Assembly (NCBI GenBank): GCA_951828385.1
Contig: OX639973.1
Coordinates: 2,241,561-2,305,560 of the forward strand
Source: an uncultured Poribacteria bacterium
GTDB taxonomy: Bacteria; Poribacteria; WGA-4E; WGA-3G
Direction of reading: 5' to 3'
DNA: 64,000 nt
Shown one piece after another: positions 3,238 to 61,211 of this stretch. Position 1 is the first letter of the stretch. Every line of letters begins with the position of its first letter. The position numbers were made by a program, and so were the translations under genes. The notes beneath the pieces were generated by a model. It ran no database searches and had not been told where the DNA came from. It saw nothing but the letters and a program-made list of their open reading frames with translations.

Positions 3238-3365
3238 TTAACTTTCCTTGTGGTTCAGTCAAGCGGGTTAGTTGCTTCAATCGCCTTTTCGTAACCCTGC
3301 TTCGCAGTGAGAACCATTTCATTACGGACTATCGTTTTGGTTTTCCATCAGAAACCCGATAAAGA

Positions 3366-5105
3366 CTATTTCTCAGACAGTAACTCTCGTGCATGTGCAA
3401 GCCCTATTTCCGTTTCTTTGCCACCGTGCATTCGGGCGATTTCGTTAACCTGTTCTTCCACCGCTAACGGTTTCGCGGTAATCAGAGCCCGTTCATCAAC
3501 AACCTTTTTTTCGACTCGGAAATGCTTGTCAGCAAAACGGGCGATCTGTGGAAGATGCGTAATACAAATCACCTGTGAGAACGCCGAGAGTTCCTTCAAT
3601 TTTTTGCCAACAACATCTGCGACCTTGCCGCCAATGCCGCTATCAATCTCATCGAAAAGCAGCGTCGGAATCTCATCGACTTGTACCAACACCGTCTTTA
3701 AAGCGAGCATGATCCGGGAGATCTCACCACCTGACGCGATTCTTACTATCGGTCGCGCTTCGGAGCCGACGTTCGGTGCAATCAAGAATTCCACAGCGTC
3801 CATCCCATCGGAACGAAATGCATAACGTTCACCCTCTACTTGAAACGGACCGCGTTCGTCTGGAATGTGTTCGACGGATGCCTGAAACTCTGCTTTGTCC
3901 ATGCCGAGCGTGCGGAGTTCCTTTTCAATCCGTTCTGAAAGATGCTTCGCGACGTGTCGCCGTTTCGTTGAGAGTGCTGTACACAGATGCTGCGCTTCTT
4001 GGATCGTTTCCTGAATCTCGCCTTGGAGCGACGCTTGTTTCTCTGAACCAAGTTGTAAGGTCTCCAATTTTTGTTCGGCTTCAGCATGGTATGTGAGTAT
4101 CTCGGAAATGGTGTTGCCATAACGCCGCTTCAGTTTCGCGATCAGCGCAAGGCGGTCGGCGATCTCGTCCAGCCGCCCTTGATTGAATTCCACGGTGTCT
4201 GCATACTGACGGATCTGTAAGGCGATATCTTCCAATTCGTAGAGCGATGATTCCAAACGCTCCCGCAATTCCGAGAGGCTGCCATCCATATCTGATAAGT
4301 CTATGAGCGCGTTCGCAACATCTTTCAGACGGTCAAGCGTAGACAAATCCCTTCCCATACCCCCGCCACCAAAACTTCCTGCTCGGTTGCTGCCATCCAG
4401 TTGTTCCCATACATAATTTGCTGACTGAGATAATTTCTCCGCATTTTTTAGTACCTGTGCTTCATCTGCCAACTTTTCGTCTTCACCTTCCTCCAAATCC
4501 GCCGTGGTCAGTTCGTTAATTTCAAATGCAAGGAGATCTTTTTCGCGTTCTGATGCAGCCAAAGTGTCCGCGAGGGCTGCCGCCTCTTGTTGCAAAACAC
4601 TGAGTTGCGTGTATAACTTGCTAACCTGTTGCCTCGCCTCACTGCTTCCACCGAAATCGTCCAAAAGTTTGAGATGTGTTTCGGTCCGAAATAGCGATTG
4701 ATGTTCGTGTTGCCCGTGGATGTCAACAAGCAGTGTTCCGAGTTCTTGCAACTGCTTTAAATTCACCAAACGCCCGTTGATATGGCAGCGGCTCCTACCG
4801 TTGGCACTAATTTGCCTTGAAAGAATCACCACATCGGAGGGGTCCAACACATCGTTAAATGCAAAATCGGTGTGCCACATCGGATGCGTATCGTCAGGCG
4901 CGACACTCGCTTCTACCTTTGCAAAATCGGTACCTTCGCGTACAACATCGGCGGAGGCTCTCTCACCTAACACCAATCCAATCGACTTGAGGATAACCGA
5001 TTTACCGGCACCGGTCTCACCTGTAAAAATATTCAATCCGGGTGCCAGTTCCAAGTCAAGTTCATCTATGAGGGCAATGTTGCGGATAGAGAGTGTTTCT
5101 ATCAT
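3366..5105 (-). CDS. recN: DNA repair protein RecN
   Basis: 579 aa. N-terminal Walker A (NIFTGETGAGKS), long coiled-coil middle, C-terminal SMC signature/Walker B region (LLFDEIDSGIGG). Lies downstream of nadK, as in many bacteria. Confidence 0.9.
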   Translation of the reverse strand: MIETLSIRNIALIDELDLELAPGLNIFTGETGAGKSVILKSIGLVLGERASADVVREGTDFAKVEASVAPDDTHPMWHTDFAFNDVLDPSDVVILSRQISANGRSRCHINGRLVNLKQLQELGTLLVDIHGQHEHQSLFRTETHLKLLDDFGGSSEARQQVSKLYTQLSVLQQEAAALADTLAASEREKDLLAFEINELTTADLEEGEDEKLADEAQVLKNAEKLSQSANYVWEQLDGSNRAGSFGGGGMGRDLSTLDRLKDVANALIDLSDMDGSLSELRERLESSLYELEDIALQIRQYADTVEFNQGRLDEIADRLALIAKLKRRYGNTISEILTYHAEAEQKLETLQLGSEKQASLQGEIQETIQEAQHLCTALSTKRRHVAKHLSERIEKELRTLGMDKAEFQASVEHIPDERGPFQVEGERYAFRSDGMDAVEFLIAPNVGSEARPIVRIASGGEISRIMLALKTVLVQVDEIPTLLFDEIDSGIGGKVADVVGKKLKELSAFSQVICITHLPQIARFADKHFRVEKKVVDERALITAKPLAVEEQVNEIARMHGGKETEIGLAHARELLSEK

Positions 5106-5148
5106 TATAGTTTTCGGTTGTCAGTTTTCAGTTAAAGAGGTCTATCTC

Positions 5149-30562: not shown

Positions 30563-31510
30563 TCATTCGCTTTCATTTTCGCTATTGGCGAGGTGCGCCC
30601 GGAGGCGTTCTAACTCGGCTTCTATTGCCAGTCGTCTTTCGGCTTCTTCTCTGGCGCGACTTTCCGCGGCTTGCCGCTGTTCCGCTTCTTCTCTGGCGCG
30701 ACTTTCCGCGGCTTGCCGCTGTTCCGCTTCCTCTCTGGCGCGACTTTCCGCGGCTTGCCGCTGTTCCGCTTCCTCTCTGACGCGTCTTTCTGCCGCTTGC
30801 CGCTGTTCCGCTTCTCCTGCCAGCAGTTCTTCTGCTGCCACTCGTAGGTGATGTTCCTCCAGGGAAGTTGTAATAGCGGTGCCATCGGGAAGATACGGAC
30901 GTAAAAGCCGCAGCTCCCACGCCTCATGAAGCTCCCACCGAAAATAAAGGTTTAACGACGCACTGAACAAACCATCATCAGCCTCTTCTTCAATCTCAAC
31001 GATGTCGCCCAATGCATCCCGCCGCCACCCCCGAAATTCTATAGGGCGATTCATGTTGGGTTGATGAATGAAATACTCCGCAACCCCCATATCCCGCAGA
31101 TACACTTCAATTTTTTCATGCCGGTCCTCAGACGCTGTTGTATCTGAAAGGAACTCAAAAACTGCTGTAGGGACGGCGCCTTCTGCCCAGGTATAAAAAC
31201 TCCTTCGTAACGGAAGTTTCGCGGCACCAAGGGCGACAAACACATCGGGAGCCACGACCTTTCTGATATCGCCTTCGCGGTAATAGATAAAGTTGTCCAT
31301 ACCGACATGGATATACGGGTGTGCCTGAAAATATCGTAAGAACTGGTCAAATAAACTATGCATCTGCATTCCGTGAAATTCGCCTGCTGGCATGGGTTCA
31401 TCGTCCTCATAAGGGTAGCCTTCAATGTAAGTGGTCGGTTTTCCACTCGCTTTTGGAAAGACAGGCATGTATTTTCTTTGCTTGAGTTCAAAATCGTTTA
31501 GCGTATTCAT
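30563..31510 (-). CDS. Uma2-family (DUF820) putative endonuclease with a C-terminal coiled-coil tandem-repeat tail
   Basis: N-terminal ~230 aa Uma2-like (PVFPKASGKPTTYIEGYPYEDDEPMPAGEFHGMQM...VAPDVFVALGA...VFEFLSDTTASEDRHEKIEVY). C-terminus has 4 copies of the 14-aa unit AEQRQAAESRAREE. Confidence 0.7.
   Translation of the reverse strand: MNTLNDFELKQRKYMPVFPKASGKPTTYIEGYPYEDDEPMPAGEFHGMQMHSLFDQFLRYFQAHPYIHVGMDNFIYYREGDIRKVVAPDVFVALGAAKLPLRRSFYTWAEGAVPTAVFEFLSDTTASEDRHEKIEVYLRDMGVAEYFIHQPNMNRPIEFRGWRRDALGDIVEIEEEADDGLFSASLNLYFRWELHEAWELRLLRPYLPDGTAITTSLEEHHLRVAAEELLAGEAEQRQAAERRVREEAEQRQAAESRAREEAEQRQAAESRAREEAEQRQAAESRAREEAERRLAIEAELERLRAHLANSENESE
30643..30810. repeat. Near-perfect 42-bp tandem repeat x4 (coding; encodes the EAEQRQAAESRARE repeats of the Uma2 protein)
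   Basis: Unit cttcttctctggcgcgactttccgcggcttgccgctgttccg at 30643, 30685, 30727, 30769, with 0-4 substitutions per copy. Spawns artefact ORFs on both strands. Confidence 0.9.
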
Positions 31511-31630: not shown

Positions 31631-32818
31631 TTAACACCCCTTGTCCGCTTTATCAAGCAGTTTGGTGGTAAAGGTATCGGCGCGTTCCAAATTGCCGTGC
31701 CGAACCCAGTTGAAAAGACATTCAGCAGAACACTCAGGGTTTGTGAGGCCGAGACAACATGTTGTAGGAGGGATTTGCAACCCCGATCCCGCATCTTCAA
31801 CGGTGTTGATAAGCGTTTCAAAGAAGTCGGCGCGTTTCTTAGGCGTTGGAAAAGCCTTGAGAATCTCGGAACGACGCGCCCCAAGGAACTCAATAAATGC
31901 ACCGTAGCCGTTGTTTTCAAACTGGTTGGCGAGTTGCTTATGGAGCCGTTTCGCTTTGTCACTGTCTTTGCCGTTTTGAGTCGATACACTAATTATTAGA
32001 TTGTCGTCTACCACAAGATCAGGGGTGAAGTGGGTGCCAGCACTCGGTTGATCAAGATATTCTCGAATGAATCCGGTTTCACTTTCACAAGATGCGTCTA
32101 CCGCTGAAGATTTGTCTGCGATTACAAGGAATGCATCTTCAAGATGATGCGGTTTCACTTCGTCCGGTGCCGGACGGACAACAGACGCACCACATCGGTT
32201 TAGCAAGGAGATGCGGCGTTCAATCTTCTGCGTTTTCTGCTTATATAAGACGATACACGTGCGATTTTCCAATAGTAGGTAGACAGGATAGGGTAACGCT
32301 TGCCCTCCTTTTTCACTGGCAATCGGCACCGGTACTCCATCTTCATACCCGAGCGTATATAGAGAAGTCGCGTTCAGTATTCTCTCAAAATGTTCACGGA
32401 TGCGGCGGCTCGTCGCGGGACTTTTACCACTCGTGGAGATGCTGAGCATCAAGTCGCCATCCGTTACAACAGAAGCGGCGGCGAAGGTGCATTGTGGGAT
32501 AACATCAACGACATTAACTAAACGAATTTTGTTTTTCTCGTGCGCTTCTGTGAAGACAGCAGTGTTAATATCCGTGAAATCGGTGGCAGCACAAACGAGG
32601 AAATAGCCGTGCGTGTCACCTATTTTCAGTTGCCGTTTGTGCCAGCGAATTGTGCCGATTTGTGCAAGGTAGGTCAGCAATTCGGTTGCATCAGGACTCA
32701 CCACGGTAACATCGCCACCACTGACGAGCATAGCGACGACTTTCCGCTCAGCAACGGTTCCGCCCCCTACGACAAGGCATTTCCGATCTTGAAGGTTTAC
32801 GTGCACAGGATAAAACAT
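31631..32818 (-). CDS. Precorrin-2 dehydrogenase / sirohydrochlorin ferrochelatase-like (SirC/Met8p-type). Has a tandemly duplicated Rossmann-type domain and a Cys-rich C-terminal tail.
   Basis: N-terminus VHVNLQDRKCLVVGGGTVAERKV...LMLSISTSGKSPATSRRIREHFE matches the CysG N-terminal/SirC pattern. A second degenerate copy follows (YLLLENRTCIVLYKQKT...LIISVSTQNGKDSDKAKRLHKQL). The C-terminus carries TTCCLGLTNPECSAEC. Confidence 0.6.
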   Translation of the reverse strand: MFYPVHVNLQDRKCLVVGGGTVAERKVVAMLVSGGDVTVVSPDATELLTYLAQIGTIRWHKRQLKIGDTHGYFLVCAATDFTDINTAVFTEAHEKNKIRLVNVVDVIPQCTFAAASVVTDGDLMLSISTSGKSPATSRRIREHFERILNATSLYTLGYEDGVPVPIASEKGGQALPYPVYLLLENRTCIVLYKQKTQKIERRISLLNRCGASVVRPAPDEVKPHHLEDAFLVIADKSSAVDASCESETGFIREYLDQPSAGTHFTPDLVVDDNLIISVSTQNGKDSDKAKRLHKQLANQFENNGYGAFIEFLGARRSEILKAFPTPKKRADFFETLINTVEDAGSGLQIPPTTCCLGLTNPECSAECLFNWVRHGNLERADTFTTKLLDKADKGC

Positions 32819-32913
32819 TTTATAATAGTTCTCAGTCGTCAGTCGTCAGTTATCAGTTAAGAGGTGGTCTGATTAATCAAAAATATCTTTAACCGACAGT
32901 TGATAGTCATTCC

Positions 32914-33897
32914 TCATGACTCGCGTGAAACGACGTAGTCTGCGAGTTGTTCGAGTGCGAGGCGGGCAGGTGTCTCTGGTAAGTCTGTCAATGCTGCTTT
33001 AGCACGGTCGGCATAGTCTTGGGCAACCTTCAAACAGTGAGTCTCGACACCATACCGTTGGAACAGTGCCTCAACAAAGGCGATCGCCTCTGCTTCATTC
33101 GTATTCGGATTCAGGACTTTCTCAAGTGTCTGCTTTTCATCATCATTGCAAACGGATCTGGCATAAATGATTGGAAAAGTGAGTTTTCCTTCACGGAGGT
33201 CCCCGAATGTATTTTTTCCTAATTTATCAGAATCTTCCGTGAAATCAAGCACATCATCGACAATTTGGAAGGCGGTTCCAATTTGCTGTCCGTAGGTTGT
33301 GAGTGCCTCAACCTGCTGTGTGTCTGTTGGGTTTCCGAGGTGTGCGCCGAGGGTGCAGGACGCAGCGATCAACTTACCGGTCTTGAAACTGATGATTTTG
33401 AGGTACTCGGCTTCGGAGATGTCAAAATCACCGCTTTTATATGCATGGATAACTTCACCTTCACACATCGCCTGCGTGGTGTCGGCGAGGATCGCCATCG
33501 CGGGATCGTCGGCACGACGGGAGACGAGCATAGAGAGGACACGCGCATGGAGATAATCTCCGACGAGGACAGCGACTTTATTGCCCCATTTCGTCTGTAA
33601 GGTCTCACGTCCACGCCGGATCGCGGCTTCATCAAGCACATCGTCATGAACAAGTGATGCAACATGGATGAGTTCAACGACAGCGGCAAGCGTGTGTGCA
33701 TCGTTTCCTTCATATCCGTAGACCTTGGCAGAAAGCACAACGAGGATAGGACGGAGCCGTTTGCCCCCGCCTTCTACAACATGTTGGACTGCCATATCGA
33801 CGAAACTATACTCGCTGGCGGTGTGTTCCGTGAGTTTCACCTCAATAGCACTGAGATCATCGGCAATTAATTCAACAATTTGATCAAAACTGGACAT
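32914..33897 (-). CDS. Polyprenyl diphosphate synthase (trans-IPPS; IspB/HepT-like)
   Basis: 327 aa with both Asp-rich motifs (LVHDDVLDEAAIRRG and FQIVDDVLDF). Confidence 0.85.
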   Translation of the reverse strand: MSSFDQIVELIADDLSAIEVKLTEHTASEYSFVDMAVQHVVEGGGKRLRPILVVLSAKVYGYEGNDAHTLAAVVELIHVASLVHDDVLDEAAIRRGRETLQTKWGNKVAVLVGDYLHARVLSMLVSRRADDPAMAILADTTQAMCEGEVIHAYKSGDFDISEAEYLKIISFKTGKLIAASCTLGAHLGNPTDTQQVEALTTYGQQIGTAFQIVDDVLDFTEDSDKLGKNTFGDLREGKLTFPIIYARSVCNDDEKQTLEKVLNPNTNEAEAIAFVEALFQRYGVETHCLKVAQDYADRAKAALTDLPETPARLALEQLADYVVSRES

Positions 33898-34058
33898 AAT
33901 GTAATGGTTGTCAGTTGTCAGTCATCAGTTGTCAGTTCGGTTTTTCTGCGAAAAACCTTTCAGTTATCAGTTAAAGAGGTGTACTGTGGCAGTAACATAA
34001 TTTGTAATTGCCACAAGAAGTTAACTGAAAACTGACAACTGATGACTGACAACTATTA
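33898..34058. repeat. Imperfect ~30-bp inverted repeat built from AACTGAC-type heptads, flanking an ~80-bp centre (hemL-ispB intergenic)
   Basis: Left arm ggttgtcagttgtcagtcatcagttgtcagtt (33906-33937). Right arm aactgaaaactgacaactgatgactgacaac (34023-34053). Related heptad runs at 5116-5160 and 32825-32860. Confidence 0.7.
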
Positions 34059-49380: not shown

Positions 49381-49575
49381 CAACACCGCAAAACCGCACC
49401 TACCGGACCTGGGAACTGAGACGGGATTCAAGAGGGTTTTGAAGTCCTCAAGGTTTCCGCGTAGTATCCGGTTCGGTTAGGAATGCAGGTCGCATTTGGG
49501 CGTGTACGCCGCGATGCACGTCGCATCTGGGCGTGTACGCCGCAAAAACCGAACCTACCGGGCCTGGGTCTGAAA
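49381..49575. repeat. Complex intergenic repeat region. Direct copies of CAAAACCGCACCTACCGGRCCTGGG flank a 2x direct repeat GTCGCATYTGGGCGTGTACGCCGC.
   Basis: 49389-49413 and 49545-49570 carry the flanking motif. The inner repeats are at about 49485 and about 49517. A further inverted copy of the flanking motif lies at 20643-20665. Confidence 0.6.
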
Positions 49576-53218: not shown

Positions 53219-55248
53219 CTATTCAAACGCATTCGCTACAATCACCAAGTCCTGTATATTGACAACGCCATCACCATTTATATCCGGTGCCGTTTCCCCA
53301 AACGCATTTGCGACGATGACCAAATCCTGGATATTCACGACACCATCACCATTAACATCCGCAGTGGGAGGCGTTTCCGACTTCAAATAGATTTCGCCAT
53401 CCAAATCTGCCAACGTATGCTGGCGTTGATTCTCTACACCGCTTGCCCAGCCGGAGACCTCCTGCGGAAGTTCTATCTCCTGTTCCTTACCAGAGCGATT
53501 ATACACCGCCCAACCATTGGTGAATTCCCGGATAAACAACCCCTCTCGGTTCTCATAAAGCTGCGCTTTCGTTTCATTGCCACCCACCGGACGACCGAGG
53601 TCGGCGTTCCAGAAATCGTACCAGTAAAACTCATCATAATGGAACGTATAAACCGATGCATTGGAATGCGTGAGTGCCATTGTCGTGAAAAACCTGTTGC
53701 GTTGCTTTGCTTCGGGACCGTCGATCGGTTTGAAAGGTGACAACTCACCTTCTAAAAGATTTAATGTTGGTTTCCTCAGCTTCGTTCATTCCACAAAAGC
53801 GCATCTTCTATGTCACGGATCCCAGACAAGGTATAGCCCTCAGGTTCACCCGGGTGAAAGTCATAAAGATCACGTCCTGTTTCCATGTAGATACCGTTGA
53901 CATAGGGTGCCCAACGGCGCTGCAGTTTACGGCGGTTGTTGTTAACGAGTATAAAAAAGTCATCGGGGACAACTTCGCGAATGCGTCGGAGGATTGTGTC
54001 CATCGCAATAGATTCTTCTTCTGCGGTATAGATTCCCTGTAGCCTCTTTTTTCCTTCGCCCCAATGGTCAAAAAAGATACCATCATAGAGTCCACACTCG
54101 CTAATCGCTTTTGCCTGTTGCACAATTTGTTCTATGACAGCAGGTTTCGTGAAGTCAATAAGATGATCTATTAGTTCTTCCATGGCATGCCTGCGCCAAA
54201 CTGATGTTAGACGGTTTCCTTCTTTATCGCGTAGCCAACCGTCCCAATCTTCGCCATAAAAATCGGGGTGCCCGCTCTCAAAATACAGCCCTACAAGCAA
54301 AATCATATTAGGATTTCGGCGAAGGACTTCGGTGTGTGTTTCTATCATTTTATCCATCTGTCCTGTCCGTAAGGTTGCGTTTATACCCTCAGGAGACAGC
54401 CATATTGTTCTCACATCATTTCCGAGTGGGCCAAAAGGGTGCACTCCAAAAATAAAGTCAAACACCGTGAAAATTTCTATAGTGTGTTGATCGTGCTCCG
54501 CAAGCGTGTGGGATTTTACCCAATTAGAAGGAAAGTTTCTGTTTTGAATGCGTTCTGCCAAAGGGAGTTTGTACGAAAAATCGTCAAATAAAGATAAACA
54601 CCATCTCTCAAATGAGTTTTTTATTGCTCCTGCGAAATGCTTGATCTGGGAAAAATCCTCAATAGGGTTGTCTATTATTTCCAAAACTTTGAGTTTGGTT
54701 AGACCGGTTATTGCGGATAGGTCTGAAACCTGATTCTCGCGCAATAGCAATACTTCTAAATTTATCAGTCCCGCCAGGGGTGTTAGGTCTGAAATCTGAT
54801 TCTCGCTCAATTGCAATTCTTTTAAATTTATCAGTCCAGTGAGGGGTGTTAGGTCTGAAATCTGGGTGTCATAAAATTCGAGCGTGTGTAGTTTGACCAG
54901 TCCAGCGAGGGGCGTTAGGTCTGAAATGTTACATCGATTGATACTTAGAAACTTCAAATTAACGGCGTGTTGGAGACCTTCAAGGTTCTCAATTTCATCA
55001 CGTTCGCTTATAAGCGTGTGTAATCGTTGCATGTCCGCGATTGTTAGGCTTTCCACGTCCAACGCTTCTGATACAATTCTCCGTAGGTGTGGATCCGGCA
55101 TCCAGTCTTGGACATCTTCTGCATGGACGGAAGCATTATAGACAAGTATGCCCACAATCGACGCGAGGAACAACTGAAACCAAAATGATTTACGATATAT
55201 TTCTTTCATTGTCATAAGATAATCTATAATCTCCTTTTCAAAACGCAT
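53219..55248 (-). pseudogene. Disrupted paralog of the LRR-hydrolase-dockerin gene (two ORF fragments, 53776-55248 and 53219-53743, separated by a frameshift)
   Basis: Fragment 1 ends ...ALLWNERS*. The -1 frame then continues as KLRKPTLNLLEGELSPFKPIDG..., colinear with ...TLLWSEKNFREPQINALEGWGLESEPLDSP... of the intact paralog 55238-57268. A single nucleotide near 53787-53790 restores the frame. Confidence 0.65.
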
Positions 55249-57229
55249 TCGCTACAATCACTAAATCCTGTATATTCACAACGCCATCACCATTCAGATC
55301 AGGTGCCGCTTCCCCAAACGCATTCGCCACAATAACTAAATCCAGTACATTCACCGTGCCATCACCATTGACATCCGCAGTAGGAGGCGTTTCCGACTTC
55401 AAATAGATTTCGCCATCCAAATCTGCCAACGTATGCCGGCGTTGATGCTCCACACCGCTCGACCAGCCAGAGACCGTTTCCGCAAATTCAATCTGTTGTT
55501 CGGAGCCGGACCGATTATACACTGCCCAGCCGTTAGTAAACTCCCGGATAAACAACCCCTCGCGATCCTCATAAAACTGCCCTTTAGTTTCATCACCACC
55601 CACCGGCCGACCGAGGGGTGCCTCGTAGAAGCGGTACCAGTAATGTTGATGTTGGTGGTCATGGGATGTTCCGATGGCGTGTTCTTCTGAATGTCCTGCA
55701 TAGAGTTCATAAGCGTGCGTGTGTACGGGACCGTTAATCCCTGTTACATACTGGACGTAACCGTCGGAATGCGTCAAATTCAGCGTTGTGAAAACACGCA
55801 TCCACTGCCGGTTTTTAGGACTGTCAAGCGGTTCGCTCTCAAGTCCCCATCCCTCAAGGGCATTTATTTGTGGTTCTCGGAAGTTCTTCTCTGACCAGAG
55901 TAACGTGTTTTCAATTTCGCGCAGTCCTGCGTATGTGTAACCACTTTTGTAATCCCGTACGGTTTCCATAAATGTTCCATTCACATAGGAAGCCCATCTT
56001 GGAATTTTACCTCGATTCGTATTTACCATTATCAGAAAGTTATCACCCACTGCCTTGCGAATTCCCTTGAGAATTCTGTCTCGTGCAGTGTGTTCTTCCT
56101 CTAAAGTCTTGGAAGCTTCGAGTCTTGGCTGTTCATTCCAGTGATCGAGAAATATACCGTCATATAACCCGCATTTTGAAACTTCAATTGCCTGTTGGAC
56201 GAACATATCTTGGATTTCAGGATGTGTATAATCAATGAGATATACACCGTTATTCCCGTCCTCCACCCTCTTACCTGATGTGTCTCGCAACCAGTACTCC
56301 CAATCTTCAGGATACTCATTTGGATGTCCATAGTAGTAACGGATGACAGCAAGAAATATCATATTGGGGTTTTGAGAAAGCAGCGCGTTTCTTGTTGACT
56401 TTGCGCGTTCTATATCTCCAATTAGTTTCCAACCGTTGGACGTAGATTCCCATTGAGTACCAAAGTAATCCGGGTAAGAAAAATATAGATGGTGGTATGT
56501 GAGTAGTTCGCTCCATGTTCCTGGCAAGTTGATAATGTTATGCCATGCTGCAAATACCCGCGGTGTGTTTATGTTCTTCAACCTAACTTCGACAGAATCT
56601 CGAGGTAAAGCACATATATTGTGGGATGTGAGATTCAATGCAATCAATTCTGTAACATCTGCGCTGTTTCCATAAGTCTGCACATTTTGAAGTCTTGGGA
56701 GTTTCAAAATCGGTGTAAAATCTTCTATCTGATTTTCTTGCAACTTCAATTCTTCCAGGTTTATTAACCCTGCGAGCGGGGCAATATCCGAGATGTGATT
56801 CTTAGACAACTTTAAGACCCGTAAGTTCTCAAGCCCCACAAGCGGTGTCAAATCCGACACTTCACTTTTAACAATAGCCAAGAATTCTAAGTTCTCAAGC
56901 CCCGCAAGTGGTGCTAAATCTGAGACTTCACTTCTGTCGATAACCAAGACTCTAAGATTCACGGCATACTCAAGTCCTCTTAAACTCCTAATCTCGTGTT
57001 CTATTTCTATTAAGATAAGATTATGTAATCCTGTCATGTCTCCAGGATGTATAGGTATCTCATCAGGGATGCCGAGTTCTTCACGGACAGCCTGCCGAAG
57101 GTTTGGATCGGGCATCCAATCCTCGGCATCTTCTGCATAGGTAAAAGCATTATAGACAAGTATGCTCACAACAGACGCGAGGAGCAACTGAAACCACAAG
57201 GATTTACGATATATTTTTTTCATTGGCAT
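55238..57229 (-). CDS. Secreted protein with N-terminal leucine-rich repeats (internalin-like), a central hydrolase-like domain and two C-terminal dockerin repeats
   Basis: Signal/TM segment KSLWFQLLLASVVSILVYNAFTYA. LRRs (VSDLAPLAGLENLEFLAIVKSEVSDLTPLVGLENLRVLKLSKNHISDIAPLAGLINLEEL). Motif GLYDGIFLDHWNE. Dockerins DVNGDGTVNVLDLVIVANAF and DLNGDGVVNIQDLVIVANAF. Start codon uncertain (M14 or M16). Confidence 0.7.
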   Translation of the reverse strand: MPMKKIYRKSLWFQLLLASVVSILVYNAFTYAEDAEDWMPDPNLRQAVREELGIPDEIPIHPGDMTGLHNLILIEIEHEIRSLRGLEYAVNLRVLVIDRSEVSDLAPLAGLENLEFLAIVKSEVSDLTPLVGLENLRVLKLSKNHISDIAPLAGLINLEELKLQENQIEDFTPILKLPRLQNVQTYGNSADVTELIALNLTSHNICALPRDSVEVRLKNINTPRVFAAWHNIINLPGTWSELLTYHHLYFSYPDYFGTQWESTSNGWKLIGDIERAKSTRNALLSQNPNMIFLAVIRYYYGHPNEYPEDWEYWLRDTSGKRVEDGNNGVYLIDYTHPEIQDMFVQQAIEVSKCGLYDGIFLDHWNEQPRLEASKTLEEEHTARDRILKGIRKAVGDNFLIMVNTNRGKIPRWASYVNGTFMETVRDYKSGYTYAGLREIENTLLWSEKNFREPQINALEGWGLESEPLDSPKNRQWMRVFTTLNLTHSDGYVQYVTGINGPVHTHAYELYAGHSEEHAIGTSHDHQHQHYWYRFYEAPLGRPVGGDETKGQFYEDREGLFIREFTNGWAVYNRSGSEQQIEFAETVSGWSSGVEHQRRHTLADLDGEIYLKSETPPTADVNGDGTVNVLDLVIVANAFGEAAPDLNGDGVVNIQDLVIVANAF

Positions 57230-57379
57230 AGGTATAACTAAAGTTTGGACAATCGATTTGTGTATCAAGTAGCGTTTTCAAGGGGCTTGGTATTTTTCTG
57301 TGAGTTCTGTACCCAGGCAAACGCGGAAAAAACTATAACAGGTTAGTTACACAAGAGACACAGCCTAACAGGAGACCAT

Positions 57380-57574
57380 GCTACACAAGAGACACAAACT
57401 GGAAGTTTATGCTACACAAGAGACACAAACTGGAAGTTTATGCTACACAAGAGACACAAACTGAAAGTTTATGCTACACAAGAGACACAAACTGGAAGTT
57501 TATGCTACACAAGACACAACTGGAAGTTTATGCTACACAAGAGACACAAACTGAAAGTTTATGCTACACAAGAG
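57380..57574. repeat. Intergenic 31-bp tandem direct repeat, about 6.3 copies (gctacacaagagacacaaactggaagtttat)
   Basis: Units at 57380, 57411, 57442 (G>A variant), 57473, 57504 (28-bp short copy), 57532, and a partial seventh. Degenerate partial copies lie at 57341-57379. No unique spacers. Confidence 0.9.
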
Positions 57575-57663
57575 GGTATTCAAGTGGAAACCTGTGTCTA
57601 TTTTAAAATTGTCCAAACTTTAGTAGGTATAAGATATAATCTCCATTTCAAATTTTGTTCCCT

Positions 57664-60603
57664 CTATTTACGAGATAAGTTGTCTCCCGCTTCCGCAAGC
57701 GGAATCTGAAACATCCCGTTGTGTCTGGTAACAATATAAAGTGTGTCGTTTTTAACAGCGAGTGAGAGGACTTTATCTGGCACGCTTGGAAAAATCTGTT
57801 CCGATTGTCTACGGTCCTCTAAACGATAGACACCGGCATCACCAGCCCCATAAATTGTGGTACCATCAACAGCAAATCTGTCTATAACGATACGCTCGCC
57901 CGCGGTATCGGTCAGGACACGCCAATATGCGCCGGTTTGTGAAGCTAAAATACCTCTGTCCGTTGCGACGTAAGCCGTTGAATCGACAAAAACGATCTCC
58001 TTGAAATGGGTAAAACGTAGGGGCAGGCTGGGGGTAATGTCGCGCCAACTGTCGCCGCCATCAAGCGACTGAAAGAGCCTACCGTCTCGCTTACCGACGT
58101 AGACGGTTTCCGCTGAGACCGCCAATTTGAACCCATTTTTCGAGCCGTCATCAGCCCGTTTCCCGGTATCTATTAATCCGGTATTTTTCCATTCAGGATC
58201 ACTCGGTTTCCAATTAAAGAGTTTCCGCTTGTATTCCACGTAGAAAGTATCACCACTGATTGCAAACGCACCGGCTCTCTCATAGTTTTCACGAAAGGAC
58301 AAATCCCTCATCAATTTACGGTCCTTTTCAGGATCACCAGAAAAGGACATTCCCTGTGCTACCGCAATCTCCTTTAGCACCGCAGGAGACAGATTTCTCT
58401 TACCAAAATCGGGTACGCCTTGAACAGGGATAAACGTATTATCACCAGATAAATGGAAGATACGGAGGTTGTCTCGCCCAGACTCAATAGCATAAAGAAC
58501 GTCGTCAACAATCACAAATTTTGAATCAGTATCGAAGTCGGTGTTAGGAGATTCTCTTTTTGAGGGTTCAGATGCTTGTTCGGCGTAATCAACTGGAACA
58601 GGTGTCCAAGATTCGCCGTCATCAGCAGATTGAACCATATTGCCGTTAGCATGTACATAGAGGCTATTATTGAATACCACCAGATCTCGTGCTCCGGTGC
58701 CGACCATGCCGTCCATAAAATGATGCCACGATTCACCCGCGTCGGTTGTGCGATAGAGACCGGAGTTTCCGGTCTTGTAGAAGGTATTTTTATCGAATGC
58801 TAAATAGGCATAGGTATTTGAGACAGTGCCAAGATTTGTCCAAGTTATCCCGTCATCTTTTGAACAAAATAGCCTGAGACCGCGTGCTAAAATTGTTTCG
58901 CCTCTAACAGCCATTGCCATAGCAGATGCTGCTATAAGGGGATATTTTTTGTCTGTAGGCGTTATCTCGGTCCACGACGTTCCGAGATCGTTTGATTTGA
59001 AAATTCTGCCTGCCCGTGACAGATCAAGTCGCATGTGATCCTCAACTTTGCGACCTGTTCCGACATAGAGAGTATCTTCAAAGGCCACCAAGTCGTGTAC
59101 GGCTCTGGTTGTATCTACCGGTAACTGTTCCCAAACATCGGCGTTGAGGCGGTAGAGGCCTCTGTCTGTGCCAGTGAATACCGTCTCTTTAATCGCAGCG
59201 AGTTTGTAAATTTCTCTACCCGTTAATCCCGTGTTCACGGGTGTCCAGTGTTTTCCAGCATCGGTGGATCGGAAAACGCCTCTCTTCCAAAGGGCGAGAT
59301 ACATCGTAACATTCGCGGGTGCGTTGCGTCCATCTGCTGCATCTACCACGATGAGTTCAGCAGGGTGTCCTTCTGGCCGGTGCCCTAATGTATTCCACGT
59401 CTCGCCATCATCGGTTGAAGCTAATAGTTCATTGCCAGCGATGATATAGAGGGTGCTTGCATGCTCTGCTATAGGCACTCGCGGCATTTCGTTTGGAATA
59501 TTGACGTTTACGGGTGTCCAGAGAGTTGCATCTGCTGTTAACCTGTAGATGCCTATTGACGAATTAACGTAGAGTGTTTTGTTAGATGTCTCAAAGATGT
59601 CAAACACGAATCCGCCTGGCGGTCCGCCCATCTGTGTCCACGGCGCAGTCGAAAATGTAGCGGAGAAATCCGCCGTTGTTGTGGTTACGACAGCCGCCTC
59701 AGCAGTCTGTAAGCCGGTCCCGATGTTTTTGGTGGCGGTCGTCGTGCGTCCGACCTGATTTCGGACAGCTGGTTTGGAAAGCAGATGGAGCATGATAGGT
59801 GCGTCAACGATTTCAACCGTCGGTTCAGATTGTGCTTCAAAACTGTATGGCTGCTGGAAGCGCGCGAGATACTGATGATGCGTACCGAGCATCAAAACTA
59901 TCAAAAGCACAGCCGCGCCAAAAGCCGCCCACGGTAGCAACGGTTTCGCGACCTGCGGCGGTGTCAGTTTCAGATCGGCGACGTGCCGCATGATGTGCTC
60001 TGTTAGGTGAGTGGGTAATTGGAAATTCCCAAGCATCTCACGAATTAAGGATTCTTCGTTCCGCGCCTGTAAACGCTTCCGCGCCCGTTGAAGCCGACTC
60101 TTGATTGTGTTCGCGGATACGCCTAAGAAGTTGCCAATTTCTTTGGCAGTCATCTCGCCGAGATAGTGGAGCGTTACGACGGTACGTTCACTTTCGGGTA
60201 GTTTTTTCAGGAGTTCCTTAACGATTTCGTAGCGGCGTTCCGCGGCTTCCGTTTCTCGTTGCTCTAATACATAATGTTTATAAGAAGATTTTTCTACTTC
60301 TGTGCGAGATATTTTTTCCAGTGATAGCATTGGCGGTTTTTTATTTTTGAACCACCGAATGCACATCCGATTCGTAATTACATATAACCACCCTGCAAAT
60401 TGGTTGGGGTTTTGGAGTGTCGTGAGTTTTTTGTGGACTTGGAGGAAGGTATCTTGTGTAATCTCTTCAGCGATATGAAAATCGCCAACTTTCCGCCACG
60501 CGAGTGCGTGGACACCCTTTTGGTATTTTCGGACTAAAGCAGTGAACGCCGCCTCATCACCTGCTAAGGTTCTCTGGATTAATTGAACATCATTTTCTAC
60601 CAT
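57664..60603 (-). CDS. Membrane-tethered ECF sigma factor fused to a BNR-repeat beta-propeller extracytoplasmic domain (paralog 2)
   Basis: N-terminus MVENDVQLIQRTLAGDEAAFTALVRKYQKGVHALAWRKVGDFHIAEEITQDTFLQ... is highly similar to paralog 1. TM PLLPWAAFGAAVLLIVLMLG. BNR motifs STDDGETW, STDAGKHW, SNDLGTSW, SKDDGITW, TTDAGESW, SADDGESW, SLDGGDSW. Its SD AAAAAGGAG lies inside the upstream PD40b tail. Confidence 0.8.
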   Translation of the reverse strand: MVENDVQLIQRTLAGDEAAFTALVRKYQKGVHALAWRKVGDFHIAEEITQDTFLQVHKKLTTLQNPNQFAGWLYVITNRMCIRWFKNKKPPMLSLEKISRTEVEKSSYKHYVLEQRETEAAERRYEIVKELLKKLPESERTVVTLHYLGEMTAKEIGNFLGVSANTIKSRLQRARKRLQARNEESLIREMLGNFQLPTHLTEHIMRHVADLKLTPPQVAKPLLPWAAFGAAVLLIVLMLGTHHQYLARFQQPYSFEAQSEPTVEIVDAPIMLHLLSKPAVRNQVGRTTTATKNIGTGLQTAEAAVVTTTTADFSATFSTAPWTQMGGPPGGFVFDIFETSNKTLYVNSSIGIYRLTADATLWTPVNVNIPNEMPRVPIAEHASTLYIIAGNELLASTDDGETWNTLGHRPEGHPAELIVVDAADGRNAPANVTMYLALWKRGVFRSTDAGKHWTPVNTGLTGREIYKLAAIKETVFTGTDRGLYRLNADVWEQLPVDTTRAVHDLVAFEDTLYVGTGRKVEDHMRLDLSRAGRIFKSNDLGTSWTEITPTDKKYPLIAASAMAMAVRGETILARGLRLFCSKDDGITWTNLGTVSNTYAYLAFDKNTFYKTGNSGLYRTTDAGESWHHFMDGMVGTGARDLVVFNNSLYVHANGNMVQSADDGESWTPVPVDYAEQASEPSKRESPNTDFDTDSKFVIVDDVLYAIESGRDNLRIFHLSGDNTFIPVQGVPDFGKRNLSPAVLKEIAVAQGMSFSGDPEKDRKLMRDLSFRENYERAGAFAISGDTFYVEYKRKLFNWKPSDPEWKNTGLIDTGKRADDGSKNGFKLAVSAETVYVGKRDGRLFQSLDGGDSWRDITPSLPLRFTHFKEIVFVDSTAYVATDRGILASQTGAYWRVLTDTAGERIVIDRFAVDGTTIYGAGDAGVYRLEDRRQSEQIFPSVPDKVLSLAVKNDTLYIVTRHNGMFQIPLAEAGDNLSRK

Positions 60604-61211
60604 CCGGATTCTCCTTTTTCAGTTGTCCCCAGGTCGTCGATAGCAACGCCGGCTGCGGCGAGACCGGCAACGCATACGCTGGATTAAACCAATCCGCGTT
60701 GGCGTTATCACCCCGGCGCGTGAGTTGTTCTGGAACACCGTCGTCCGAAGCGATTTTGAAGAGTTGTCTGAAACCACGAACCCGTTTATCGTAAATGAGT
60801 TCATTCCCGTGCGGTGCCCAGGCAGGATTAGACGCGAAGTTGCCGCCTCCATCTGCAATCTTCCGGAGTCCGCTACCATCTTGGTTCACAACATAGACCC
60901 CCATAGTGTGTCCTATCTCTTGCCTACCTGTCCAAAAAAAGGCTATCTGCGCGCTATTGGGTGCCCAAGCTGGGTCAAACATCCCAATCTTCCCCGGAAG
61001 AATTTTCTCTTCTACATGCGTTTGTAGATTAATAATCTCGACCCTGACGTTCGGTGCTTGGAGATTTCCGTTTTCAGCCCAAACGAACTTGGCTGCCATA
61101 AAGGCTATCTCAGAACCGTTAGGAGACCACGCATGCTTTGGCAAAAAGTGGACGCATCATTCCACACATCAGCATCCAGAAGATGATAGAAAAAACCAAC
61201 TTCAATCTCAT
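60590..61211 (-). CDS. Exported PD40/TolB-like repeat protein (paralog b), frameshifted at a T5 run after the signal peptide. C-terminal ...STTWGQLKK tail. Its 3' end overlaps the ECF-fusion 2 start by 14 nt.
   Basis: The ORF-track part 60590-61144 starts at TTG. Upstream, GGAGGAATCGGT-ATG (61209-61211) encodes MRLKLVFSIIFWMLMCGMMRPLFAKAC... in the +1 frame. Removing one T of ctttttgcc fuses the two. PD40 motifs AWSPNGSEIAF, PAWAPNSAQIAF, PAWAPHGNELIY. Confidence 0.6.

Follow-up and report, generated by a model that had tools for sequence, protein, structure and literature searches.

The 31-nt tandem repeat that precedes the LRR-GHL15-dockerin gene in the window (the whole 64,000-nt stretch of DNA that was analyzed) is the expandable core of a non-autonomous transposon, not a free-standing promoter feature. 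We consider it likely that the repeat is a hairpin minisatellite, prone to slippage and borne by an IS701-derived MITE, which inserted upstream of the ATG of the LRR gene. The MITE inserted at TATACCT immediately before the ATG and duplicated 7 bp; the spacer behind the ECF-sigma fusion gene grew from 39 to 434 nt. The tandem hairpin units gain and lose copies and vary in length, so that arrays differ in length between strains; the most probable mechanism is replication slippage or unequal recombination, which the hairpins themselves would favor. If the downstream gene is affected at all, structured RNA in the transcript would be the cause. What appeared to be a regulatory repeat is reclassified here as a transposon-borne minisatellite.

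Tandem Repeats Finder places the array at 57378-57574 (minus strand), with a period of 31 nt, 6.5 copies, 94% matches and a score of 359; the 31-bp tandem direct repeat of the original prediction, which had counted about 6.3 copies, is therefore real. The 31-mer occurs five times in the window when up to one mismatch is allowed, compared with zero occurrences in 100 shuffles. Repeat finding, a unit inventory, the unit fold and covariation define the minisatellite, which in gene orientation comprises a partial unit at its 5' end and six full AAACTTYCAGTTTGTGTCTCTTGTGTAGCAT units (five of 31 nt and one of 28 nt), with start-to-start spacings of 31, 31, 31, 31, 28 and 31 nt. The single 28-nt copy noticed earlier is present, whereas the supposedly single G>A variant is found on the + strand in two copies, at 57443-57473 and 57533-57563. 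A diverged terminal repeat unit, GGTCTCCTGTTAGGCTGTGTCTCTTGTGTAAC, follows at 57346-57377 (minus strand); it is a 65% copy in the repeat family and is similar to the AGGCT/AGCCT-type units of the arrays at L058 and L124. The location had also been read correctly, as the array lies between the ECF fusion and the LRR gene, 149-345 nt upstream of the ATG at 57229 (predicted, 150-350 nt). Because the units are arranged head-to-tail, at spacings of 31 or 28 nt and without unique spacers, a CRISPR reading is ruled out, in agreement with the prediction. Exact scans with the 21-nt core of the repeat gave no matches in either genome or metagenome contigs; this core is strain-specific because the CT/GT tract varies.

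The region had further been called non-coding, with a unit length that is not a multiple of 3, and this holds. The + strand of the unit is stop-free in all frames, and gene callers have predicted ORFs across it (P0121-P0125), which might indicate that the array encodes a repetitive small protein through the + strand ORFs at 57409-57606 and 57440-57709. The unit, however, measures 28, 29 or 31 nt depending on the strain, neither frame nor peptide is conserved between strains, and the ORFs have no Pfam domain and run beyond the element into the antisense of the ECF gene. The probability of a coding function is next to negligible.

A 388-bp element (57237-57624), with terminal inverted repeats and a target-site duplication at its borders, surrounds the array; neither these border features nor the hairpin in each unit formed part of the original prediction. 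The two 17-nt terminal inverted repeats, ACTAAAGTTTGGACAAT at 57237-57253 (the 3' end of the element in gene orientation) and ATTGTCCAAACTTTAGT at 57608-57624 (the 5' end), are complementary at 17 of 17 positions. They are flanked by a 7-bp direct repeat: the LRR-side copy of the target-site duplication (57230-57236; AGGTATA on the + strand, TATACCT in gene orientation) directly abuts the ATG, and the second copy, AGGTATA, occupies 57625-57631. This combination is the signature of a transposon insertion. Read in gene orientation, the element consists of a 17-bp inverted repeat, a 33-nt leader, the array, a tail of about 125 nt and the second 17-bp inverted repeat. The non-repetitive leader (TTTAAAATAGACACAGGTTTCCACTTGAATACC; 57575-57607, minus strand) was delimited by alignment with insertion-sequence 5' ends, which it matches as far as a conserved CCTCTTG block, and it is there that the array starts. 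The non-repetitive tail (57254-57345, minus strand) aligns in register with IS and MITE 3' ends (the TTTTCTGYGAGTT block) and holds, at 57265-57333, a C-terminal transposase remnant of 22 codons; its translation, VFSAFAWVQNSQKNTKPLENAT followed by a stop, is in frame and corresponds to the last residues and stop of the IS701-family transposases of L114 and L047. Otherwise, the element contains no transposase gene. Because the leader and tail match IS ends and a transposase remnant is kept, the element is an internal-deletion derivative of an IS701-type IS, i.e., a MITE. Terminal inverted repeats, an abutting duplication, small size, an empty site and ends shared with an autonomous IS, features by which MITEs are recognized, are all found here. 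A search of the 64-kb window with the 17-mer at up to three mismatches returned one other, weak match (0.12 expected by chance), and neither the window nor 23 kb of L003 contains a second copy of the inverted repeat or unit.

The two flanking genes are co-oriented on the minus strand. The upstream gene (57664-60603, with its TAG stop codon at 57664-57666) encodes a 979-aa fusion of an ECF-type sigma factor (regions 2 and 4) to a BNR/sortilin-type beta-propeller, and the downstream gene (55238-57229) encodes a 663-aa protein with a signal peptide, LRR, GHL15 and dockerin. Exact-product matches to the two flanking proteins, and to an alternative start, were sought and none was found. Orthologues of the ECF gene were collected by exact-product look-ups and one genome scan. 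In L006, a Poribacteria-related MAG (79% identical), both genes are present with a 39-nt spacer and a single TATACTT, and the element is absent; the spacer ends in GGAGATTATATCTTATACTT directly before the ATG, and spacer and gene start are otherwise collinear with the window. The gap in the window is now 434 nt, the sum of 39, 388 and 7. The empty site in L006 thus indicates that a short spacer alone once divided the two co-oriented genes and that the element inserted there. In L003 (an 8.08-Mb contig whose ECF protein is 92% identical) the element occupies the same site with the same duplication; it is 468 bp long because its array has 9.4 units, mostly of 29 nt. L001 and L002 (96% identical) stop inside the array, a typical short-read assembly break. 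In all three, the element site is the same as in the window, with identical flanks. The non-array parts are 100% identical between the window and L003, and the flanking gene is a mosaic in which 100-nt windows are 89-100% identical; against this background, the identity of the non-array parts is not informative about selection on them. Orthologues with 88-91% identity have different downstream genes and lack the element, which indicates that the insertion is confined to a narrow clade. The LRR-GHL15-dockerin gene is intact in the occupied genomes (the window and L003) and in the empty-site genome L006.

Several further features of the neighborhood were recorded. The gene upstream of the ECF fusion (60590-61144 in the window, Tricorn_N/PD40-like) encodes 184 aa here and 170 aa in L003, and its orthologue is 345 aa long in L001, L004, L135 and L137; the gene may be truncated or frameshifted in the window/L003 clade. 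L003 (584-1738, intact) and L004 (14004-14857, split) each have an IS630-type (DDE_3) transposase gene close to the orthologous locus, unrelated to the window MITE. The MITE-free ECF orthologues of L135 (5945-6120), L137 (5945-6120) and L136 (6035-6150) are followed by a common block, CGTAGGTTGGGT...GAAACCCAAC, which may be a different small mobile element. Other tandem repeats in the window are a 42-nt unit in 4.2 copies at 30638-30815 (in ORF 30563-31510), a 31-nt unit in 2.0 copies at 49483-49543, and 66-nt units in 2.2 copies at 54718-54864 and 56814-56956; the last two fall one in each of two LRR genes and presumably are LRR coding repeats. Heptamer tandem repeats of the AACTGAC/GACTGAC type (for example, ctgacgactgacgactgagaactattataaaATG) occur at 5109-5133, 32827-32859, 33907-33937 and 34023-34054, less than about 30 nt upstream of the ATG of the minus-strand genes 3366-5105, 31631-32818 and 32914-33897, so that this motif recurs in 5' leaders.

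The original prediction assigned the array to a promoter region and proposed that it may act as iterons or tandem operators, or as a phase-variable spacer that alters the geometry of the LRR promoter. In favor of these proposals are the variation in copy number between strains, a 31-bp unit close to three helical turns, MITE-borne promoters known elsewhere in bacteria (PMC10969869; BrickBuilt), and a related array at a contig end, L076, which abuts a canonical TTGACA-18-TATAAT promoter. However, a consensus scan predicted no sigma-70-like promoter on the gene strand between 57000 and 57900, and the array sits within a transposon insertion in what had been a 39-nt spacer, a length that implies transcription together with the upstream gene and not from a promoter of its own. 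At about 190 bp, the stack of 31-bp units is too long to fit between a -35 and a -10 element, and no flanking hexamers are predicted on the gene strand at this distance from the ATG, which led us to reject a phase-variable promoter repeat. Iterons need a replication origin and an initiator gene, yet no replication gene, regulator gene or origin is associated with the array, whose neighbors are the ECF-sigma fusion and LRR/dockerin genes. The array moves with a transposon, related arrays recur at unrelated loci, and the 29-nt unit of L003 breaks the helical phasing. A role of this kind is very improbable, and we infer that the array acts as neither iteron nor operator. The two flanking genes probably are, or were, co-transcribed. 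Apart from a weak terminator-like hairpin within the diverged unit, a terminator scan of the region gave no prediction.

One part of the regulatory proposal, variation in repeat number between related strains, was borne out by the copy-number comparison: the window array has 6.5 units of 31 nt and that of L003 has 9.4 units of 29 nt, a difference in unit length that may be due in part to assembly error in repeats. An array at the same locus is also found in the independent assemblies L001, L002 and L003 and in the predicted ORFs P0121 and P0125 (6.5-6.7-Mb contigs), which shows that it is not an assembly artefact of the window. The unit variant in L001 and L002 reads GTGTGTC. Of the predicted ORFs, P0121 (6.54-Mb contigs) lacks the G>A variants, P0125 (6.66-Mb contig) is identical to the window ORF, and P0124 comes from the L003 genome. 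Point variation within the arrays falls in the loop (TCC, TTC or TTT) and the CT/GT spacer. Slippage is the presumed mechanism of array variation.

The 17-mer that ends the element is widespread. It was found in at least 120 metagenome stretches, with many of the matches at contig ends; several others were set aside as coincidences within conserved coding sequence (T-K-V-W-T-I-K-E-A). In inverted orientation the 17-mer bounds elements of 1347-1394 bp, each with one ORF of 408-438 aa; examples of these approximately 1.35-kb elements with identical 17-mer ends are L034, L046, L047 and L114, among others. The ORF of L034 scores 194.5 bits on the NCBIfam IS701 model NF049999 (cutoff 170), and the IS ORFs also match Pfam DDE_5 and DDE_Tnp_1; the window itself carries no such ORF. 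With a single DDE transposase above the NF049999 cutoff and a length of about 1.35 kb, the partner IS resemble the IS701 family. More than 20 loci hold transposase homologues (46-100% identity). The partner transposases share only 20-25% identity with plasmid transposases annotated as IS701, which marks the group as divergent. No IS701-type transposase was found in the window or at any of the poribacterial loci examined.

The same 17-mer also bounds ORF-free MITEs of 185-540 bp, with duplications of 6-9 bp, mostly 7-8 bp. IS701-family elements are usually described with 4-bp target duplications, and in this respect the 17-mer group differs from the family. Other same-ended MITEs have either no array or unrelated arrays (L026, L035, L017 and L055). 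Those at L017 (4606-4928) and L055 (10816-11110) contain an unrelated internal array of 28-32-nt units (CCTTTTTCAAAGGGGG...), so that internal arrays recur in this inverted-repeat family. The inverted repeat of full-length IS runs about 8-10 nt past the 17-mer (TAATGNTTT-ACTAAAG...), as seen in L034 (1181-1192 and 2542-2553) and L046 (340-351 and 1700-1711). As no duplication abuts the 17-mer in L034 and L046, the true ends of some family members lie further out.

Each unit of the window array carries a 9-bp hairpin, GCAUAAACU-UYC-AGUUUGUGU. The layout common to all units is GTAGCAT-A, stem, 3-nt loop, complementary stem and TGTG, and four stem variants are seen: AAACT/AGTTT, AGGCT/AGCCT, AGACT/AGTCT and AACCT/AGGTT. 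A peptide-based search of predicted proteins, with the translated stop-free + strand of the array as query, returned the orthologous locus and L138 only. Related arrays are present in the Aplysina aerophoba sponge metagenome MKWU01 at L058, L124 and L076. The array of L058 has 7.8 units; that of L124 has about 17 and lies in an element whose ends are slightly degenerate versions of the same inverted repeats, between a glycosyltransferase gene (best named matches Poribacteria, 92% identity) and a co-oriented downstream gene. At L138 the array reaches 27.8 units, built on the same stem, and is flanked by a CARDB-domain gene and holA. This array lacks the 17-mer ends and has instead a 15-nt inverted repeat (87% complementary) and direct repeats of roughly 30 nt. 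A palindrome-containing unit of about 38 nt, TATCGCGTGCACAGCACGCTCCTACAGAAGATATAATG, flanks the array at L138, with two tandem copies to one side and a single copy to the other (3312-3387 and 4358-4387), as if the array had landed within a different small repeat. At L009, one solitary unit-like hairpin, with an AACCT/AGGTT stem, is found at the 3' end of a gene.

These loci bear on whether the array began inside the MITE. The array family could instead be older than the MITE and independent of it, a REP-like hairpin of Poribacteria that builds up tandem arrays at any site it reaches and that was captured by, or grew inside, the IS701-derived MITE. The absence of ACTAAAGTTTGGACAAT ends at L138 suggests that the array may have such an origin; the solo hairpin of L009 has no inverted repeat nearby, and other MITEs with these inverted repeats have no array or an unrelated one. 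Against this, the arrays of the window, L058 and L124 lie exactly between an IS-derived leader and tail, and the 3' part of the unit, CTCTTGTGT, continues the conserved CCTCTTGTGT block of the leader, which suggests that the unit arose from MITE sequence. L138 could also be a decayed or differently bounded element. L138 and L009 point to capture, and the continuity of leader and unit to an origin within the MITE; we regard an independent array family as a possibility, though a rather doubtful one.

The preferred reading, a MITE-borne minisatellite, is compatible with a second function layered on it, in which the hairpin array, transcribed within the ECF-LRR mRNA, is an RNA module, co-opted like REP/BIME sequences, that alters mRNA stability, processing or translation initiation through its stacked hairpins and the pairing of the two inverted repeats, with the number of units tuning the effect on the surface-protein gene. 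Across an alignment of 11 distinct unit types, all 99 of 99 cells form standard pairs, compared with 18-50% in slid controls; two pairs covary, with both sides changing, and one U.G pair is invariant, such that the pairing is kept across the four stem variants while variation is concentrated in the loop and spacer. Predicted folding is strand-asymmetric in the unit (-7.4 kcal/mol sense, -2.7 kcal/mol antisense), in the whole window element (z = -4.83 sense, -1.03 antisense) and in the L124 element (z = -9.85 sense, -0.20 antisense). At all five independent array loci, the GU-rich strand runs in the sense direction of the neighboring genes, and the downstream gene stays intact where the element is present. 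Finally, the 3' inverted repeat is paired in the predicted fold and ends 8 nt before the ATG: the two inverted repeats could pair with each other, placing these 17 nt in a long helix with the hairpin array between its arms.

Other considerations count against such a role. The covariation evidence is thin because it comes from about three to four independent stem lineages, the strand asymmetry derives in part from GT-rich composition, and five loci lend little statistical weight to the shared orientation (by chance, about 1 in 16 to 1 in 32). DNA-level processes can also keep palindromes intact, and no Rfam family matches: the whole window gave no match at gathering thresholds, and the region at E<=1 gave a chance match of 13.9 bits only. 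Strand bias and covariation in these few lineages are suggestive of an RNA role, and an RNA-level effect of the array on the operon is possible, although we consider a co-opted RNA module unlikely. Its most extended form, in which GCAUA-NN-CU / AG-NN-UGUG would define poribacterial expandable RNA hairpin arrays that are partly spread by IS701-type MITEs, lie in sense orientation within operons and, by unit number, tune downstream genes such as those for LRR/dockerin proteins, seems more improbable still.

As a transposon-borne minisatellite, the array provides a dated insertion, with an occupied and an empty site, in an uncultivated sponge-symbiont phylum (Candidatus Poribacteria), and it links a widespread 17-bp end sequence to a divergent group of IS701-type IS and MITEs. 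In practice, arrays of this kind disrupt short-read assemblies, as in L001 and L002, and yield spurious ORF calls (P0121-P0125). If the array does act on the transcript, it would provide a simple, heritable and variable control over the expression of a eukaryote-like LRR/dockerin protein, and the LRR/dockerin surface proteins so tuned would be ones implicated in the interaction between sponge and symbiont.

Two kinds of known repeat systems resemble the window element. The REP/BIME sequences of enterobacteria are imperfect palindromes of about 30-35 nt that form clusters between the genes of operons, are co-transcribed and affect mRNA stability; BIME units alternate in orientation, and REPs are mobilized by RAYT (IS200/IS605-type) transposases. 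In the window, L124 and L138, imperfect palindromic units likewise separate co-oriented genes. In contrast to BIMEs and RAYT-mobilized REPs, the units of the window are all in direct orientation, and the element has DDE-type inverted repeats.

The second kind comprises minisatellite-bearing MITEs, namely BrickBuilt (23-nt units) and MITEPgRS/MITE464 (41-nt units) of Porphyromonas gingivalis, which are strictly intergenic, vary in repeat number between copies and strains, and have short terminal inverted repeats that match resident insertion sequences of the IS5 type; they are present in about 19 copies per genome, and promoter activity has been shown for BrickBuilt (Klein et al. 2015, PMC4596501). 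The window element has the same layout of leader, spacer-less tandem direct repeats, tail and IS-type inverted-repeat ends. It differs in its IS701-type rather than IS5-type ends and in the combination of a covarying, strand-biased hairpin unit with a clean 7-bp duplication; the 64-kb window contains one copy. A MITE within an operon also has a precedent in Chunjie of Geobacter uraniireducens, which lies between co-oriented genes and apparently has not destroyed the operon (Chen et al. 2008, in PMC10969869). Chunjie is 178-235 bp long, belongs to a different parent family and, unlike the window element, is not described with a minisatellite. Minisatellites inside bacterial MITEs, and MITEs tolerated in operons, are thus already known; the window element differs from these in the IS701-type parent, the host phylum, the clean 7-bp duplication with its empty site, and the covarying, strand-biased hairpin.
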